Positions 14,971 to 19,861 of a DNA stretch of 19,861 nucleotides are shown here, piece by piece. The DNA is from Candidatus Thorarchaeota archaeon (GTDB taxonomy: Archaea; Asgardarchaeota; Thorarchaeia; Thorarchaeales; Thorarchaeaceae): positions 1 through 19,861 of the forward strand of contig JAEORO010000068.1 in the NCBI GenBank assembly GCA_016840855.1, given 5' to 3'. The number at the start of each line of letters is the position of its first letter. Position 1 is the first letter of the stretch. Made by a program: the position numbers and the translations under genes. The notes beneath the pieces were generated by a model. That model saw only the letters and a list, made by a program, of their open reading frames with translations, did no database searches and was not told the DNA's origin.

Positions 14971-16563
14971 TTATTCATTTTGATAACTCTCGGCTTTTTC
15001 TACTGGTTTAACAAGACCTTGTCGAGCAATCCATCCAAGGATTATAATATTGAGCAACAATACGATAACGAATAGATCACCTTGATAGAAATACTGGAAT
15101 ACAAGTCCTCCAAATGACGGACCGACAGAAGAAAGGAGATACACGAAAAACCAAAACACACTAAGAATTTTCGATGTGTCGTGTCTTGGAAGGTTCTTCT
15201 GGATAATGGTTAGTAATAACAAATACCATACAGCATCGTTAACTGATTTCAATATTAATGCAAGGAATGGGGTGGAAAAAATAGCTCCAAGTCCTGCAAA
15301 TAACAGATTAGCTTGATTGATCAATGCCATTGGTGCCCAATATGGAAAACTTGGTGATATGAGAAGAAGTATCACACAAATTGGCATGATGCTATAAACG
15401 ATCAACGCTGTCAACCGCTCACCACGTCTATCAGAAAATCTTCCAGTCCCAAGCAACACTGGCACTGATATTATGATGGTGAGAATGGTCATGAGGATTA
15501 ACCCTGGTATTTCGATGCCTACTTGTTCATAGATATAGATATACGCGCCGAATCTGAACAGTGCATCACTTATGGCGTCCAATGCTACAATTGCCAACAT
15601 TCCTGGAACCGTCTTGACGAGCAAGCCCACAGCTCTCTTATTATCTTGAATGAAGGATTGAATAAGTGATAGTCCTTCTCGTTTCATCTCTGGTGCTTTA
15701 CCCTCTAGAAGAGCAGCTCTCGCAAGTGCTCCAAAAACAAGAAACAATCCTCCAATAAGGAACATTCGGCGAAGACCTGGTCCAAAACCATCTACTGTAT
15801 TCAGAATGACAAACGCACCAAGAGTAACTACACCAAATATCCTTCCTGCGCTAAAAAGTGAAATCCCTAGTCCACCATGCTTCTTAGGTATATTATCCAT
15901 AATGAACGCAGTTGAACCACCCTTGAAAATATCCATAGTTGAAAAAAGCAATAGAGCTATGATAATCCATGTGAACTCAATAAAGATGCCCATTATCAAA
16001 TTGTATCCTGCCATCATAAGCATAGCAATTACGGAGAGGTGCTTTCTATTACTTACATCACCAACATAACCCCCAACCAAACGTGACACTGCAGAAACTG
16101 CAGCTGTGATGGATAAGATGGCTCCAATTAACCAATACTCCCAGTTTAGTACTTCAAGCAGATAGAGATTGAAGAATGCTCCCATGTAGCTAAATGCTGT
16201 GAATACCCAAGAAGTCGTAAGATATACTGAGTAATTACGCCATGAAAAAATTGTGCGAAGGGAATCTAACAGACTGGGACTCTCTTCCCTGACTTCATAA
16301 AGCCTCTCCTCGAACTTGTCGAGCTTCTCTCTGATTTCGTGAAGTTTCTTTTTCTCATCTTCAATTCTTGCTAATCTTTCTCTCTCTTCTTTCTCTTGCA
16401 ATGATTCCGGTAGGTCTTCCCAAGTGAGAAGATCCAGTTCAATTTTAGAGGGTTCATCATCCAATTCACGTTTGCTCCTATCATCAGAATGCTGGATGAG
16501 TTTCACTATTCTCTTGTCTCCAAACTGGTTGAAATGTGTACTGCCGTTCCAATTGCAACTCAT
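14971..16563 (-). CDS. MFS transporter with charged N-terminal extension
   Basis: About 12 TM helices; motif A variants GYVGDVSNRK and GRFSDRRGER; start uncertain and probably downstream of 16563. Confidence 0.85.
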   Translation of the reverse strand: MSCNWNGSTHFNQFGDKRIVKLIQHSDDRSKRELDDEPSKIELDLLTWEDLPESLQEKEERERLARIEDEKKKLHEIREKLDKFEERLYEVREESPSLLDSLRTIFSWRNYSVYLTTSWVFTAFSYMGAFFNLYLLEVLNWEYWLIGAILSITAAVSAVSRLVGGYVGDVSNRKHLSVIAMLMMAGYNLIMGIFIEFTWIIIALLLFSTMDIFKGGSTAFIMDNIPKKHGGLGISLFSAGRIFGVVTLGAFVILNTVDGFGPGLRRMFLIGGLFLVFGALARAALLEGKAPEMKREGLSLIQSFIQDNKRAVGLLVKTVPGMLAIVALDAISDALFRFGAYIYIYEQVGIEIPGLILMTILTIIISVPVLLGTGRFSDRRGERLTALIVYSIMPICVILLLISPSFPYWAPMALINQANLLFAGLGAIFSTPFLALILKSVNDAVWYLLLLTIIQKNLPRHDTSKILSVFWFFVYLLSSVGPSFGGLVFQYFYQGDLFVIVLLLNIIILGWIARQGLVKPVEKAESYQNE

Positions 16564-16668
16564 CCGAAACTAGCTTCGGATACATCATGAACGGCGTAAG
16601 AACAAGTGGAAGTACTAGCTGAGGCTATATAGAGGCCTCACTTTTCATACATACTTTACTGACTGTAC

Positions 16669-16701
16669 TATTCCGGGGTCACTACTGTCACCCCGGTAAT
16701 A
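16669..16701. other. GC-rich hairpin downstream of the 83-aa gene (terminator or 3' stabiliser)
   Basis: CCGGGGT (16673-16679)/ACCCCGG (16690-16696), extended by TATT/AATA. Confidence 0.5.
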
Positions 16702-16730
16702 CGCCGGGTCCATTGCATTCACCGTGGCTA

Positions 16731-16982
16731 CTACTCGAACAATAGCACCTTAATGTCGCCGTCCGCTGTGGGGATGGCCATGATTTTTTGTGTGCCGATG
16801 TCCGCTGTAACCACGAGACTTTCTGGTGGAGCCTTTGCATTAATAAGATTCCTTACTGCTAACTCGAGGTTTATTGCAACGAGTCTTACAGTTTCTGAAT
16901 CTGTGAAGGGATCCACCTCACGTCCGTTCTCGGGCGTGGTGATATCTCCGAATAATGGTTCGATTCTATGTGTTCGTATCAT
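16731..16982 (-). CDS. Small hypothetical protein, 83 aa
   Basis: GGAGG upstream of the ATG; globular alpha/beta-like composition; downstream hairpin. Confidence 0.65.
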   Translation of the reverse strand: MIRTHRIEPLFGDITTPENGREVDPFTDSETVRLVAINLELAVRNLINAKAPPESLVVTADIGTQKIMAIPTADGDIKVLLFE

Positions 16983-17213
16983 TTTTCATTTTTCCTCCAT
17001 TGCGGGTATACCGCTTTTTTTCTTTATATTACCAGGGTTCAGGAACTTGATCGCCTACTCTTGGGTCCATTTTTTATTTCTCTCCTCGAATACTTCATTG
17101 TTCTCTTATCTATCTCAAAGGTCGGTATTGGATTCACTCCCGGACCAGTTTTTCTTGGGGGGCTGGTTTCGGGTTCCAATTCTCCTTCGTTGTAGATTCT
17201 CTTTGTTTGACTC

Positions 17214-17641
17214 TCACACTGCAGAGAATGACAAGAATCCATACCAACCGTGCCAGCAACGATTCATTTCCACTGACATGCTTGCCCGCATACTCCTATG
17301 TCCCAGTCAGCATAACTGATGCTAACTAGAACGGGCTAGGATCTTCGCATGGCGGCTGCACTACAGTAGAAATGCCGCGCACAACACCGATTGATAGCAA
17401 CTCTAATGCTGCGCGACTCTTAGTCATACTCTCGTAAAGAGTCCTCATCCGGTCAGTGCTAATCGTCTTCACCTCCTTCGTCGCTGGTTGTTGATATGGC
17501 GGATCCACTTGCTACTCTTTGGCTACTACGGCCTATGTTTTTCTGTTTCATATTTGGCCGCCTACCTTAGACTAACTAGGAAGATAGATACAGCTGACAA
17601 AATCAGCATAACCTAGCTTCTGAGCTCAGTCTGCAGTGTGA
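17214..17641 (-). ncRNA. Candidate large structured RNA of unknown family (core domain; may extend to about 17025-17675)
   Basis: Perfect 12-bp closing helix plus about 12 nested helices found by eye; many are completed by G-U pairs only on the minus strand; no convincing CDS. Confidence 0.65.
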
Positions 17642-17830
17642 ATCCAAGATAGAGAGTAGGAAACCGGTATAATAAGGGAGCGTCTGACAGAGAACCACTT
17701 CTAGTAAGCCTCTTAGCGCTATTTAGAGCCTTATTTGAGAAACGCCTTCAAAAAAACAACTGAAATTGAATGCAAATCGTGAAAAATTGGACTTGCGACA
17801 CATTCATTACTAAACAATTGGCCATAATAC

Positions 17831-18940
17831 GTGGGTATTCTCTTGACAATACCGAAGCCACTTGGTCGCAGTGATCTACGTTTATTGAATCGACTAGCAA
17901 TAGCTCCCTCGATGAGGCAAGCAGCTCTTGCTCGTGAACTGGGTGTGACACGATCGGCTATAAACCAATTGTGGGCAAAACTAACAAACGAATATGGATT
18001 GACTATTCGTGGCAATCTTGACTATGGTCAAATTGGTCTCCGCTCTCTATTTGGTTGGGCACATGCGCCAGGAATGTCAGATGTTATAACGAAATTTTCA
18101 CGATGGCTTGAATCTAATAACTTGGTAACAAGAGTTACTAAATCGAGGATGTCTTCGAGTTTGGGAGAGATAGTGTATTTTGAAGCAATTACTCCAATCG
18201 ATAGCAGGTATTCTTGGTTTCAAAAACAGATTGATCGATTTAGAAAGAGACCCTATAGCCTTAGCATCGAGCTAGATGAAACTCAAAATATTTCGCATCA
18301 TCTGAACTTAGCTCTGTTCGATGGCAGCATGTGGTCATTCAGTGATGACTTTCGCCTTCTGGCAACTATTGATGCTGCTAAGGGATATGTTGATGTTCTA
18401 CCGTCTGTTGGTGCCGTAAAACAGAGTAATGGAACTACTCTTCTATTGGAAGATTTGATTGTGGCTTCTGCAATAGAGTCGAACTATTATACGACATCAA
18501 TTGAGGTATCCAAGAGATTTTCTAAGCTGGGTCTAAAGCCTCGCGCAGGAAGAACACTTCGTAGAAAGATTTCCAATTTACGAAAAAATCTTGCTCTCCC
18601 TTATGTTGACCTCCAAAATATCGGGCTTCCTCAGAAACTCATAGTTTGTGTCAAGACAGAATCCCTGGCATCTCCATTTTCTCGAGTGCTTCAAGTACAA
18701 TCGAGCACTTTTCCCAAAGCACGAGTCATATCTGGTCAATCACTAACAATACTTGACCTAGAAACTCCCAGAAAAGTTGATTGGTTAAATTTAACACAGA
18801 TTCTCACTAATCTTGCAGGTAACACTTCAGAGATATGCACATTTATAGCGGACCGTAACGAGGTTGAAAAACGACTTGAGAGTGTGGTGCCAGCAATAGC
18901 ATCACGCATGCCCTCTGGAGAACATGACCCTTGGCGTTGA
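17831..18940 (+). CDS. Lrp/AsnC-like regulator with tandem wHTH modules
   Basis: DLRLLNRL...QAALARELGVTRSAINQLWAKL...LDYGQIGL; second HTH-like segment RTLRRKISNL...VDLQNIGL. Confidence 0.8.
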   Translation: MGILLTIPKPLGRSDLRLLNRLAIAPSMRQAALARELGVTRSAINQLWAKLTNEYGLTIRGNLDYGQIGLRSLFGWAHAPGMSDVITKFSRWLESNNLVTRVTKSRMSSSLGEIVYFEAITPIDSRYSWFQKQIDRFRKRPYSLSIELDETQNISHHLNLALFDGSMWSFSDDFRLLATIDAAKGYVDVLPSVGAVKQSNGTTLLLEDLIVASAIESNYYTTSIEVSKRFSKLGLKPRAGRTLRRKISNLRKNLALPYVDLQNIGLPQKLIVCVKTESLASPFSRVLQVQSSTFPKARVISGQSLTILDLETPRKVDWLNLTQILTNLAGNTSEICTFIADRNEVEKRLESVVPAIASRMPSGEHDPWR

Positions 18941-18946
18941 AAGGAA

Positions 18947-19861
18947 TTGGATAACACTCGAATAGGAATAGATGAATTATCTCAAGATGCACCTTCACGC
19001 AAGATTATGCCTGTTGATATTGAAACGCCTTATGATGATCTATTCCCTGAGGTTGCTGAACCTGCTGTGTTATTCTATCTAGATGCGATGCGAATCTATC
19101 TTGGCATGTGTGCAGGCACAGTCACCATGGAGGAGGCTTTGAAAGCTGTTGAAAATTTAAAAGCTAATCCGGAATTTGTTGCTTATCCTACAAACCCAAC
19201 ACTAGTACCAATTAATGAAACTTTCAAGAATAAAATATTGGAGAACTTGAAGACACTAAGTAAGTTTAACCTATTGACAAAGGACTCTGTTAGGTCTGCA
19301 TATACCTTTGCCTTTCTCATGGAAGAAACTCCAATCACAAAAACTGATTTTGATGTTCTAAAGATTCTAGCAATCAATCCCACAATATCTTTAGTCAAAG
19401 GAGCCGAAGCATTACAGATGGCCCCCCGAACTGTTGCAAGAGCTTTGGAACGCCTCCGTGACCGACACTTTGTAAGATTCAGTGCTATACTCGATTATTC
19501 AGCTTTCAACATTCAGTCTGCTATGCTCTTTTTCACACTTAAAGAGGGCATTGATTGGGCTGAGGTGGAACAAGGATTTGCTGAATATAGGTTCACGAAG
19601 ACTCTTCTCAAGACCACAATGACTGAACTTGGATATGTAAGTTTCATGATCCCCAATCTGAAACGAAATCTGTCTGCCTTTCATGATTCAATAAGATCGG
19701 TATCAAAGACCTACTTTGACTATTCTAGTCTTCATTATCAGACAGGGTCCGGTGCAAGATTAAATCTCTCTCTTTTCGAAGATGGTCAGTGGACTCTAGC
19801 TAGAGTCATCGAGTCTCCCTTTGAAGAAGAGATGCAGGATATTGAGAAACTGCCAGTATTA
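18947..19861 (+). CDS. Second Lrp/AsnC-like wHTH regulator, partial (runs off the window; absent from the ORF track)
   Basis: Hand translation from TTG 18947 is open for 305 codons: DFDVLKILAINPTISLVKGAEALQMAPRTVARALERL...LDYSAFNI...NLSLFEDGQW, paralogous to the upstream gene (NLALFDGSMW). Confidence 0.8.
   Translation, partial: MDNTRIGIDELSQDAPSRKIMPVDIETPYDDLFPEVAEPAVLFYLDAMRIYLGMCAGTVTMEEALKAVENLKANPEFVAYPTNPTLVPINETFKNKILENLKTLSKFNLLTKDSVRSAYTFAFLMEETPITKTDFDVLKILAINPTISLVKGAEALQMAPRTVARALERLRDRHFVRFSAILDYSAFNIQSAMLFFTLKEGIDWAEVEQGFAEYRFTKTLLKTTMTELGYVSFMIPNLKRNLSAFHDSIRSVSKTYFDYSSLHYQTGSGARLNLSLFEDGQWTLARVIESPFEEEMQDIEKLPVL

Follow-up and report, generated by a model that had tools for sequence, protein, structure and literature searches.

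Hok-type mRNAs carry a small open reading frame (ORF) within a structured message of about 400 nt, the 5′ end of which pairs with the 3′ region. RNAIII of S. aureus is a dual-function structured RNA that also encodes a small peptide, and infC is autoregulated through an AUU start codon. To our knowledge, post-transcriptional control in Asgard archaea has hardly been described, and the same is true of leader peptides and near-cognate initiation across the archaea. We know of no archaeal arrest peptide, and a literature search for such peptides returned none among the matches listed. Arrest at the end of short ORFs is described elsewhere: in the available part of one report, AZIN1 joins an AUU start to a C-terminal PPW stall ~30 codons downstream (PMC9082881), and in the excerpted account of E. 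coli PepNL, arrest occurs at the stop codon and is tuned by Trp-tRNA readthrough (PMC11890864).

The locus described here lies in a window of 19,861 nt, the whole stretch of Candidatus Thorarchaeota DNA that was analyzed. Its minus strand carries a 45-codon ORF, pep45, within a strongly folded element (17214–17641), followed by a 13-codon micro-ORF, the gene of an 83-aa protein (p83) and a transporter gene (Table 1). Like hok mRNA, the element is a highly structured message of ~400 nt that is closed by end pairing and contains a small ORF. Unlike in hok, pep45 is no membrane toxin of the hydrophobic kind; the locus occurs once, on the chromosome, with synteny kept across the family, and we know of no antisense RNA for it. 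It has in common with RNAIII several hundred nucleotides of structured RNA, long-range end pairing and an embedded small ORF; unlike RNAIII, the pep45 RNA gives no indication of action in trans, and its structure outside the ORF varies between genera, save for the cistron-closing helix. As in infC, a conserved, probable AUU-class start stands behind a good Shine-Dalgarno (SD) sequence, with output that would be sensitive to an initiation fidelity factor (aIF1 in archaea, from the available text of PMC6237735), although pep45 is not an initiation factor and all three Ile codons are used. The likeness to upstream ORFs of the AZIN1/ODC family, as far as these are covered in the excerpted report (PMC9082881), consists in a conserved ORF, a few dozen codons long, that precedes the main genes, a probable AUU-type start and a proline/aromatic C-terminus before the stop. 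Unlike in AZIN1, initiation is SD-led rather than scanning, so ribosome queuing cannot raise it in the same way; there is no sequence homology, the ORF is enclosed by a 5′-3′ long-range helix, the downstream genes encode an 83-aa protein of no known family and an MFS transporter, and stalling is here a proposal. The micro-ORF resembles PepNL-type leaders, in the part of the account at hand (PMC11890864), in its very small size, its strong ribosome-binding site and its place just ahead of a putative regulated gene, and in having its conservation concentrated at the C-terminal residues and stop; unlike PepNL, it belongs to another domain of life, lacks sequence similarity and mostly ends in UAA, and its arrest is hypothetical.

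We regard the locus as a clean and comparatively well-supported case of a family-wide long-range helix closing a small cistron. It also combines a perfect SD with an Ile-codon start that is hard to avoid in eight lineages on comparative data, two small ORFs with a common proline/aromatic C-terminal motif, and a fixed neighbourhood of two Lrp-like proteins, the 83-aa protein and the transporter. As a whole, the element is best explained, with good confidence, as a 5′-proximal, self-contained folded mRNA domain around pep45 and not as a non-coding RNA (ncRNA).

Table 1. Features of the pep45 locus, in coordinates of the window
Feature	Coordinates	Strand	Observations
MFS transporter, 530 aa	14971–16563	-	Pfam MFS_1, E 1.6e-23; conserved downstream neighbour
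Conserved 83-aa protein p83	16731–16982	-	syntenic in all loci reaching it
Micro-ORF MDPRVGDQVPEPW-stop, with SD GAGGAGAGAA upstream	17029–17070	-	found in 49/49 loci; stop codon at 17031–17029
Structured 3′UTR of pep45	17214–17325	-	hairpin with the stop codon; stalk 3′ strands 17262–17225; closing-helix 3′ strand 17225–17214
45-codon ORF pep45 (ISTDRMRTLYESMTKSRAALELLSIGVVRGISTVVQPPCEDPSPF, codon 1 AUU, stop UAG)	17326–17463	-	period-3 conservation, pN/pS 0.23; codon 1 at 17463–17461, stop codon at 17328–17326
Shine-Dalgarno GGAGGUG	17470–17476	-	found in 46/49 loci
Stalk 5′ strands AGAGUaGCAAG, CCAUAUCAAC, CCAGCGACGA	17478–17518	-	pair with 17262–17225
Two 5′UTR hairpins	17529–17617 (17617–17575; 17560–17529)	-	both in the MFE structure
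Closing helix, 5′ strand UCACACUGCAGA	17630–17641	-	pairs 12/12 with 17225–17214
TATA-box-like element CTTATTATA	17668–17676	-	invariant in 19/19 same-genus loci
Two tandem divergent Lrp/AsnC-like proteins (369 aa; and 305 aa, truncated at the contig end)	17831–19861	+	weak Pfam HTH matches; syntenic across the family

The first-pass annotation, which had missed the ORF, proposed a possibly undescribed large ncRNA. This is not supported, as the core of the element (17463–17326, minus strand) evolves as protein-coding sequence. Across 39 distinct sequences, the entropies of the three codon positions are 0.56/0.33/1.30 and pN/pS is 0.23, and the frame is open in 49/49 loci with both other frames closed by stops. 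At E ≤ 0.001, a profile of the peptide matched 16 proteins in a set of 1.84 billion representatives; 13 of these are small proteins (39–82 aa) matched through to their own C-terminus, and most of the 12 sequences examined among the 13 end in ...PPCEDPxPF or a close variant. The C-terminus is PPCEDPSPF-stop in the window and ...PPCEDPxPF-stop in a set of 22 sequences, with close variants in more distant genera, and a conserved peptide motif occupies the putative stall site. Pfam and NCBIfam gave no match to pep45, and its nearest clusters in the ESM Atlas are unnamed hypothetical proteins (scores 0.91–0.93). The peptide is largely polar, with an arginine within its sole apolar stretch, and by reading of the sequences no signal peptide was seen in it or in the micro-ORF product. 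It is conserved along all 45 residues, as would be expected of a functional protein more than of a peptide that does nothing but arrest ribosomes. The peptide is present, in conserved synteny, in 68 of 85 genomes from a single Thorarchaeota-type family and in none of the 314 genomes from elsewhere in the phylum. A literature search for this RNA or peptide, with supplementary lists of candidate RNAs and small ORFs outside its scope, found no description. A large fold without an Rfam match in a gene-poor gap can thus conceal an unannotated or mis-started small gene.

The fold itself is strong. On the minus strand, the minimum free energy (MFE) from RNAfold is -172.2 kcal/mol, as compared with -128.9 ± 5.8 kcal/mol in 100 dinucleotide shuffles (z -7.53, 0/100 as good), which lies far beyond the shuffles; the plus strand gave z -2.49, with 2/100 shuffles as good. 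These values bear out the strand asymmetry that had been read from G-U pairs, and the helices listed in the first-pass annotation sit where it placed them, with the closing helix, both 5′ hairpins and the interrupted stalk all recovered by RNAfold. A further part of that description, a multibranch head, is not confirmed: its helices at 17443–17352 fall within the coding sequence (CDS), and most of their pairs never vary or break. For GACUCUU/AAGAGUC, 63.9% of cells are paired within the genus and 53.8% across the family, and RNAalifold found no consensus structure in the 39 distinct CDS sequences. Over the whole structure, 78.4% of cells pair in 19 same-genus sequences, versus 33–41% with the partners slid, and the covariation score within the genus is 0.138 versus 0.108 ± 0.003 in shuffles. 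Within the same genus, 28 pairs changed on both sides, amounting to 79 such cells versus 42.6 ± 5.3 in shuffles. With a fold that beats shuffles and with compensatory changes, the element has the properties of a structured RNA under selection on pairing.

Known RNA families are absent, as the first-pass annotation had held. At their gathering scores, the Rfam 15 covariance models, riboswitches among them, gave 0 matches in the window and 0 in 20 homologous loci, and a search limited to 16900–17900 returned only three chance-level matches (E 6–9.6). An RNase P or SRP RNA in disguise was rejected, as both lie on other contigs of the genome, RNase P RNA at 163.9 bits and SRP RNA at 87.7 bits, the latter below the 96.5 cut-off but full length. 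ARAGORN found no tRNA or tmRNA, and a tmRNA-like reading was dropped.

The long-range helices H1, H3 and H4 have >92% of cells paired within the genus, with compensatory changes. In the 19 same-genus sequences, the closing helix is paired in 97.7% of cells, with one C-G to U-A double change and three U-G pairs; CCAUAUCA/UGGUAUGG is paired in 94.7%, with an A-U to C-G change in four sequences, and CCAGCGAC/GUUGCUGG in 92.3%. The 5′UTR hairpins are paired in 77–84% (first) and 80–81% (second) of cells within the genus, and the second has five pairs with both-sided changes (four in helix 5 and one in helix 6). Since the 12-bp closing helix was not found as such in other genera, it appears from the sequences to be a genus-level elaboration. 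The innermost stalk helix, formed by the segment before the SD and the 3′UTR, is family-wide, with sequences that differ by lineage. It reaches p ≤ 0.05 in both shuffle controls in 15 of 21 lineage representatives, and its 3′UTR partner lies 52–92 nt after the stop in 19 of the 21. The stalk 5′ strands end 1–2 nt before the SD. Because the pre-SD segment pairs with the 3′UTR, the whole pep45 cistron is closed into a loop, and in this genus the stalk is lengthened by additional helices, the 12-bp outer one among them, up to the predicted very 5′ end of the transcript. Outside the ORF, the structure differs between genera except for the cistron-closing helix.

Shuffling the 3′UTR alone costs ~31 kcal/mol in the window (z -8.2). 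The corresponding z-scores are -3.5 to -6.6 in 11 of 17 other lineage representatives, and the contribution of the 3′UTR is weak (z above -3) in 6 of 18 representatives. Counts of long-range pairs in MFE structures versus shuffled 3′UTRs were too noisy, and only the energy z-scores were kept; full-length duplexfold runs of the 5′UTR against the 3′UTR gave interrupted, uninterpretable duplexes. Masking of the SD or start was set aside, as the accessibilities predicted for the pep45 SD disagree from one lineage to another, ranging from 0.0 to 0.93.

The SD lies within 30 nt upstream of codon 1 in 46/49 loci, at a spacing of 6 nt in 40 of these loci and of 7 nt in the other 6, and is kept intact even at loci where its frame differs from that of the ORF. 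According to the available text of PMC6237735, a P. abyssi model mRNA has GGAGGUGA, with the start codon 5 nt on, as its natural strong SD arrangement, and archaeal aIF1 is described as promoting discrimination against starts that are non-canonical. Ribosome profiling of Haloferax, as excerpted from PMC7261190, placed ~30% of putative alternative initiation sites at near-cognate codons. In the genome of the window, 37 of 350 GGAGGTG sequences are followed 5–8 nt on by an ATG with an ORF of at least 40 codons, and an ATG exactly 6 nt past the motif is rare (one case, versus 14 at 5 nt and 15 at 7 nt). A search for the 16S rRNA, the 3′ end of which would hold the anti-SD, found none in this genome and three relatives (two of them single-contig), where it may be unassembled.

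Codon 1 of pep45 is ATT in 29, ATA in 10 and ATC in 7 of the 49 loci. The three Ile codons are interchangeable at this position. Eight of the 49 loci have an in-frame stop between the SD and codon 1, without an in-frame ATG, GTG or TTG upstream, and their next canonical start is at codon 6 or 13. In lineages without a canonical start, pN/pS over the first 12 codons is 0–0.32, which indicates purifying selection there too, so that these eight loci present a conserved CDS behind a ribosome-binding site with no canonical start, as near-cognate initiation predicts. The GUG within GGAGGUG could be the start of pep45 in most lineages, because it is in frame, three codons upstream, in 38/49 loci and more distant homologues begin M-E-V-K with ATG. 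As for the eight exceptions, miscounted bases in an A-run during assembly could conceivably account for them. From the sequence comparison, initiation at AUU, AUA or AUC is highly probable in the eight lineages that have no alternative; for all lineages, we favour a start at these codons 6–7 nt past the SD with distinctly less assurance.

The micro-ORF begins with ATG in 48 of 49 loci and with GTG in one. It has 13 codons in the window, where it ends in EPW-stop, and 11–15 codons in 47 of the 48 ATG-start copies, the other having 19. All 48 end in P[WFY]-stop, with W as the last residue in 34, F in 12 and Y in 2; the stop is TAA in 41/48, and the ORF lies 30–60 nt before the 83-aa gene in 44/48. 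Conservation is confined to an M-x-P start and a (P)EP[WF]-stop end, with the middle free to vary. Among 2470 small ORFs with an SD and ATG in the genome, it alone ends in [DE]P[FW], and this C-terminal motif is common to pep45 and the micro-ORF (DPxP[FW]-stop and PEPW-stop). Thermodynamic modelling lent no support to a structural switch: the SDs of the micro-ORF and p83 are accessible (mean unpaired probability ~0.6–0.67) whether pep45 is free, translated or bears a stalled ribosome. Structural attenuation was rejected, as forcing the pep45 region single-stranded left downstream SD accessibility unchanged in 18 lineage representatives.

The TATA-like promoter that had been proposed near the 5′ end of the closing helix stands, given the invariance of CTTATTATA within the genus, and CTTATTATA lies ~26 nt upstream of a conserved TTGGATTCACAC and of the closing helix. 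CTAGA-type repeats, candidate sites for the two Lrp/AsnC-like proteins, lie upstream of the TATA box. From the usual archaeal TATA-to-start distance, transcription is predicted to start at ~17645–17642, just before the closing helix. RNA-library contigs from three studies lie on the element, although such contigs carry no strand and could include DNA. One of them (1 mismatch) spans 17392 to 17103, beyond the 3′ closing strand, and a contig from a relative links 17442–17070 to the start of p83. In the four RNA runs examined, 17628–17900 and 16500–16734 are uncovered, which does not count as a sign of transcript ends. By reading of the minus-strand sequence (17214–17000 and the last stretch ahead of the p83 start), no run of five or more T occurs between the element and p83. 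The alternative offered by the first-pass annotation, a very large regulatory leader, comes nearer: the element is the 5′ part of an mRNA under a conserved promoter, and RNA contigs reach beyond the strand that closes the helix on the 3′ side, in the direction of the genes that follow. It also encloses a coding ORF.

The element amounts to a structured small-ORF mRNA, for which we infer a mechanism. Behind the promoter, the message carries a structured leader of ~165 nt, GGAGGUG, the 45-codon ORF under purifying selection and the structured 3′UTR. Its base-paired 5′ end and closed loop would make it a stable, slowly and controllably translated small-protein message, expression of which the two divergent Lrp/AsnC-like proteins may govern at the promoter. 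The transcript would continue into the micro-ORF and the 83-aa gene, with the MFS transporter next; the transporter gene may, judging from the DNA, have its own promoter. In the last and most speculative step, which is tentative, the shared C-terminal motif would pause ribosomes at or near termination, and through it the peptides would affect downstream expression in cis. With about the same probability, the products of pep45 and the micro-ORF are instead free peptides or small proteins recognized in trans.

Two other readings of the element bear on its RNA. A stand-alone structured ncRNA with the ORF as a by-product would account for the very strong strand-specific fold, the conserved closing helix and the absence of an Rfam match; it is contradicted by the codon-level evidence (period-3 substitution, pN/pS 0.23, a frame open in 49/49 loci with the others closed), by a CDS without consensus structure and by an RNA contig that runs past the 3′ strand, and we find it hardly credible. 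The 5′-3′ end pairing of a small-ORF mRNA, a hallmark of hok, and the 12-bp inverted repeat at the two ends of the element would also suit a hok-like type I toxin mRNA or a miniature inverted-repeat transposable element (MITE) with terminal inverted repeats. Against this reading, which is extremely improbable, the element is single-copy in the 3.36 Mb genome, with other matches of at most 25 nt (best E 0.008), its synteny is fixed across the 14 family genera with a match, and its fold is strand-specific, unlike a DNA palindrome. As a repeat or MITE it was rejected on having one full copy, where several at unrelated sites are expected, and as a type I toxin-antitoxin system on the largely polar peptide, which lacks a long hydrophobic stretch, together with the single copy and fixed synteny.

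The remaining readings concern what the peptides do. An arrest-peptide leader is a sharper version of the speculative last step above: pep45 and the micro-ORF, whose nascent chains end in DPxP[FW]-stop and PEPW-stop, respectively, would hold up ribosomes at or near termination when a metabolite or the aIF5A/polyamine status calls for it, and would thereby control how much p83 and transporter is translated. This is possible, though less likely than not. The micro-ORF, unique in the genome, conserved at its ends alone, of narrow length range, mostly ended by TAA, near p83 and behind a strong SD, fits it, as do the motif common to both ORFs, the probable near-cognate start of pep45, the AZIN1 and PepNL precedents cited above and adjoining regulators with an amino-acid-binding Lrp/AsnC fold. 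However, pep45 is conserved along its whole length, the final residue is aromatic and not proline, downstream SD accessibility in modelling is unchanged when the pep45 region is forced open, and the queuing logic of AZIN1 is not directly transferable, since archaeal SD-led initiation proceeds without scanning. It is likewise possible, and no less doubtful, that the products of the small ORFs work on their own as free peptides or small proteins, for instance as a small subunit or partner of p83, or as exported peptides that the MFS transporter would handle and the adjacent regulators would sense, with the fold only stabilizing or tuning the mRNA. Full-length conservation of pep45 (pN/pS 0.23), a motif common to both peptides as for one recognition partner, a p83 that is confidently predicted to fold and the conserved six-gene neighbourhood with a transporter and two regulators speak for such peptides; the freely varying middle of the micro-ORF, the lack of a signal peptide in either sequence, the absence of a modifying enzyme family among the 20 proteins scanned in the window, and regulators that are Lrp/AsnC-like and not the HTH+TPR receptors of known peptide-signalling systems speak against them. 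A rather unlikely elaboration of the cis-acting reading is an Asgard counterpart of eukaryotic uCC-type translational control, with the AUH-start ORF and the 13-codon ORF as ribosome-pause sensors. These would read aIF5A/polyamine status or an aromatic amino acid, the cistron-closing helix would hold the stop codon near the weak start, and the outcome would be the expression level of the lineage-specific 83-aa protein and the transporter.

The neighbourhood of six genes around pep45, including the transporter and two regulators, is conserved in the family. The 53 homologues of p83 that carry a source name are Thorarchaeota hypothetical proteins, with one from Hodarchaeota. No Pfam domain was found in p83, and its AF2 model (pLDDT 82.8) has one helix and three strands. 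A fold search gave only weak Roadblock/LAMTOR/MglB-like matches (E 0.23–0.85, TM 0.3–0.44), which were not used as evidence, and an ESM Atlas search gave no usable match. Prediction of a pep45-p83 complex scored 0.01, which counts neither for nor against binding. Among the 20 window proteins scanned with Pfam, p83 and two others have no family, and none belongs to a peptide-modifying enzyme family (radical SAM, YcaO, lanthionine synthetase etc.); a RiPP precursor was rejected, as no such family is adjacent.

The Lrp/AsnC-like pair are distant paralogues (E 1e-4), with Pfam sequence matches below the cut-offs, and a PDB sequence-profile search with the 369-aa protein gave 0 matches. Its AF2 model (pLDDT 84.4) consists of two HTH+RAM modules, and the best PDB match is the siroheme decarboxylase NirDL (4ch7, E 3.7e-7), along with many Lrp/AsnC regulators; the wHTH + RAM fold of Lrp/AsnC is matched with Foldseek probability 1.00 to many Lrp/AsnC structures and NirDL. 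NirDL is a fusion of two Lrp/AsnC-type modules. RRNPP-type signalling was rejected, as the adjacent 369-aa protein has these modules and not an HTH with a TPR receptor. A DPW near the C-terminus of the same protein was considered as a third copy of the motif and rejected, as it is not conserved and relatives stop a few codons earlier. On the other side of the element, the 167-nt spacer before the MFS gene contains hairpins and a TATATA.

The minus strand of 17214-17641 folds with a minimum free energy (MFE) of -172.2 kcal/mol, compared with -128.9 +/- 5.8 kcal/mol for 100 dinucleotide-preserving shuffles, none of which was as good (0/100; z = -7.53). Under the same control, the plus strand reached a z of only -2.49. 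The strand-specific fold described in the first-pass annotation is upheld by this RNAfold comparison: the MFE structure recovers its closing helix of 12 bp, its interrupted stalk and the two hairpins at the 5' side. The element, a single-copy locus in the 3.36-Mb assembly, matches no known RNA family: the whole window had no Rfam match at gathering thresholds, and a permissive scan of 16900-17900 returned three matches, all at chance level (E 6-9.6). RNase P, SRP and tRNA hallmarks had been judged absent, and this agrees with the placement of the genome's RNase P RNA (full length, 163.9 bits) and SRP RNA (87.7 bits) on other contigs, and with the lack of any tRNA or tmRNA found by ARAGORN at the locus.

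The core of the element is a gene, and the earlier non-coding RNA reading is not supported. In an alignment of 22 full-length copies, the invariant columns of the central 150 nt fall two by two, with a variable third base between the pairs. This open reading frame, pep45, encodes a 45-aa peptide with the C-terminus PPCEDPSPF. Its 135-nt length is kept in 42 of the 49 loci having both flanking genes, and across the 39 distinct sequences analysed the three codon positions have entropies of 0.56/0.33/1.30 and mean pN is 0.16 against a mean pS of 0.69 (ratio 0.23), with stops in the other two frames of every sequence. What had been drawn as a "multibranch head" is coding sequence rather than a conserved RNA head, since RNAalifold found no consensus structure in these 39 sequences and the three helices proposed there (54%, 80% and 76% of cells paired family-wide) owe most of their pairing to codon positions 1 and 2, which do not vary. 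Pfam and NCBIfam hold no family matching pep45. Its profile gave 16 matches at E <= 0.001 among 1.84 billion representative proteins, 13 of them small proteins (39-82 aa) aligned to their own C-terminus. The peptide has one nearly invariant Cys, within PPCEDP.

In 46 of 49 loci GGAGGTG precedes codon 1 by no more than 30 nt (40 loci with a 6-nt spacing, 6 with 7 nt); in one further locus it stands 11 nt ahead of an ATG at codon 1. Because the motif is intact both in frame and out of frame, it behaves as a Shine-Dalgarno (SD) sequence rather than as codons. Codon 1 is ATT in 29 of the 49 loci, ATA in 10 and ATC in 7. An extra base brings the TGA of GGAGGTGA into frame in six loci, and TAA or TAG lies between the motif and codon 1 in two more; the next ATG, GTG or TTG in these eight comes only at codon 6 or 13. 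The first 12 codons of the same lineages give pN/pS values of 0, 0.17, 0.29 and 0.32 in four pairwise comparisons and are therefore translated in spite of lacking a canonical start. On this sequence evidence, a near-cognate AUU, AUA or AUC start is very probably used in at least the eight lineages that have no canonical alternative. An in-frame GUG inside the SD motif counts against such a start in 38 of the 49 loci. Further caveats are that some distant pep45 homologues start M-E-V-K from ATG, and that ATG at exactly 6 nt from GGAGGTG is rare in this genome. On the supporting side, 37 of the genome's 350 GGAGGTG motifs have, 5-8 nt further on, an ATG that opens a frame of 40 codons or more. 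Near-cognate initiation sites are among the observations of a ribosome profiling study in Haloferax (PMC7261190). No archaeal SSU rRNA was found in G000, G001, G357 or G375, including two single-contig genomes, and rRNA operons appear to be missing from these records or withheld from them.

Selection on RNA structure, as claimed for the element at large, holds for the helices flanking the coding sequence, which carry compensatory changes, and is not confirmed for those inside it. Within the genus (19 sequences), the MFE structure of the window has 78.4% of cells paired, compared with 33-41% when partners were slid by 1-3 columns, and double-change cells number 79, against 42.6 +/- 5.3 in shuffles. 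Every well-supported helix lies outside the coding sequence. For the family as a whole, 21 lineage representatives were used to fold the 20 nt directly upstream of the SD with the initial 120 nt of the 3'UTR. This duplex beats 95% of both shuffle kinds in 15 of them; in 19 of 21 the partner lies 52-92 nt past the stop and 0-4 nt separate the end of the 5' strand from the SD, and the helix sequences vary from lineage to lineage. This family-wide helix closes the whole pep45 cistron into a loop; the 12-bp outer helix, and a further 130 nt past it, are additions of the window's genus. Shuffling the 3'UTR alone costs the window's element ~31 kcal/mol (z -8.2), and in the other 17 representatives z is -3.5 to -6.6 in 11 and weaker in 6.

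Features of the pep45 locus, with pairing and base changes among same-genus sequences
Feature	Positions	Strand	Cells paired	Changes or other property
Closing helix	17641-17630 / 17225-17214	-	97.7%	one C-G to U-A, three U-G
Helix CCAUAUCA/UGGUAUGG			94.7%	A-U to C-G in 4 sequences
Helix CCAGCGAC/GUUGCUGG			92.3%	one double-change pair (3 sequences)
Second 5' hairpin			80-81%	five double-change pairs
pep45	17326-17463	-		45 codons
Micro-ORF MDPRVGDQVPEPW-stop	17070-17029	-		13 codons, strong SD
CTAGA/TCTAG-type repeats	~17680-17745	-		e.g. GCTAAGAGGCTTACTAGAAGTGG
Genus-specific spacer	17080-17200	-		SD-like GAAGGAG
Spacer hairpin	17130-17190	-		compensatory changes
Hairpin GCGGUAUACCCGC	~16994-17008	-		compensatory changes
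83-aa protein gene	16731-16982	-		invariant GREVD block
Spacer, 83-aa gene to MFS transporter	16575-16730	-		167 nt, two hairpins
First Lrp-like neighbour	17831-18940	+		tandem HTH+RAM
Second Lrp-like neighbour	18947-19861	+		tandem HTH+RAM

A TATA-like element had been said to place the start near the closing helix, and the TATA box CTTATTATA is indeed invariant in 19/19 same-genus loci, ~26 nt upstream of a conserved TTGGATTCACAC; by the usual archaeal TATA geometry, transcription is predicted to start where the closing helix begins. Contigs of four metatranscriptome runs from three studies match the element. One, with a single mismatch, covers 17392-17103, beyond the 3' closing strand; one from a relative covers 17624-17257, and another, also from a relative, joins 17442-17070 to 17005-16946, within the 83-aa gene. 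These contigs are supportive of transcription but not decisive, because they are unstranded and DNA can be present in RNA libraries. From the element to the 83-aa gene, reading of the minus strand revealed no stretch of T as long as five. The CTAGA/TCTAG-type repeats lie upstream of the TATA box in all same-genus loci, where the divergent Lrp/AsnC-like proteins might use them as an operator.

The element was found by blastn in 30 of 36 other genomes of its Thorarchaeota-type family and in 0/24 from other families, and when 400 genomes of the phylum were searched in six frames with the peptide profile, pep45 was found in 68/85 genomes of the family versus 0/314 outside. Proteins homologous to the locus genes bear the name Candidatus Thorarchaeota. 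Gene order is constant in all loci long enough to display it: two divergent HTH proteins and, on the opposite strand, the element, the 83-aa gene and an MFS transporter. A contig edge interrupts the element or comes as close as 40 nt to it in eight of the 30 matching genomes (G006, G010, G012, G016, G019, G021, G022 and G028), far above the expectation from contig density, and may reflect strain-level flank variation around an identical core. Two matches each in G020, G012, G029, G390, G395 and G366 could be a second copy or bin contamination.

All 49 loci have a micro-ORF between pep45 and the 83-aa gene (ATG in 48, GTG in 1), nearly always behind a purine-rich GGAG/GAGG-type SD. The 48 ATG-start copies are 11-15 codons long in 47 cases, end in W (34), F (12) or Y (2), stop with TAA in 41, and lie 30-60 nt ahead of the next gene in 44. 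In many lineages the C-terminus is PDPxP[WF], which is the terminal motif of pep45, and the window's micro-ORF has the sole [DE]P[FW] ending among the genome's 2470 SD+ATG small ORFs. The common motif suggests one recognition partner for both peptides, which would be either a protein or the ribosome, pausing at or near termination. The ribosomal alternative is drawn by analogy with the AZIN1 uORF, described as AUU-initiated with a PPW motif (PMC9082881), and with termination-arrest leaders such as PepNL (PMC11890864). In the genus-specific spacer, GAAGGAG leads a frame with NPIPTF, NPRPTF or PDPLPW, depending on species, which resembles an additional proline/aromatic motif that has decayed and lost its stop. 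The stretch from the micro-ORF stop to the SD of the 83-aa gene contains a small hairpin, GCGGUAUACCCGC.

The pep45 message is a cistron that lies close to the promoter, is closed and strongly folded, and has a perfect SD. Its paired 5' end and closed loop would keep the message stable and its translation low and sensitive to initiation fidelity, and the Lrp-like proteins would act at the conserved CTAGA-type repeats. A structural switch found no support in thermodynamic modelling, in which the downstream SDs were ~60-67% unpaired under every state forced on the pep45 region. Messages that combine RNA structure with small upstream ORFs are a kind already known. The combination at this locus, and its occurrence in Asgard archaea, was not known before, given that there is no Rfam family, no protein family and, in a title-level search of the literature, no prior description of the RNA or peptide.

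The 83-aa protein is well conserved and without family. Its model (pLDDT 82.8) has a helix and three strands, with weak, Roadblock-like fold matches. It also has a conserved C-x(8)-C-x-H, PPECLVLTADICTH in most genera, and a common metal or redox site formed with the pep45 Cys is conceivable from these patterns. The model of the 369-aa neighbour (pLDDT 84.4) contains two HTH+RAM modules and best matches the siroheme decarboxylase NirDL, a fused protein (E 3.7e-7), and numerous Lrp/AsnC regulators; the second Lrp-like neighbour is its distant paralogue. The first neighbour is as close to NirDL as to regulators, and the pair may be either regulators or enzymes. One of the two hairpins ahead of the MFS transporter contains TATATA, and the transporter may have its own promoter.
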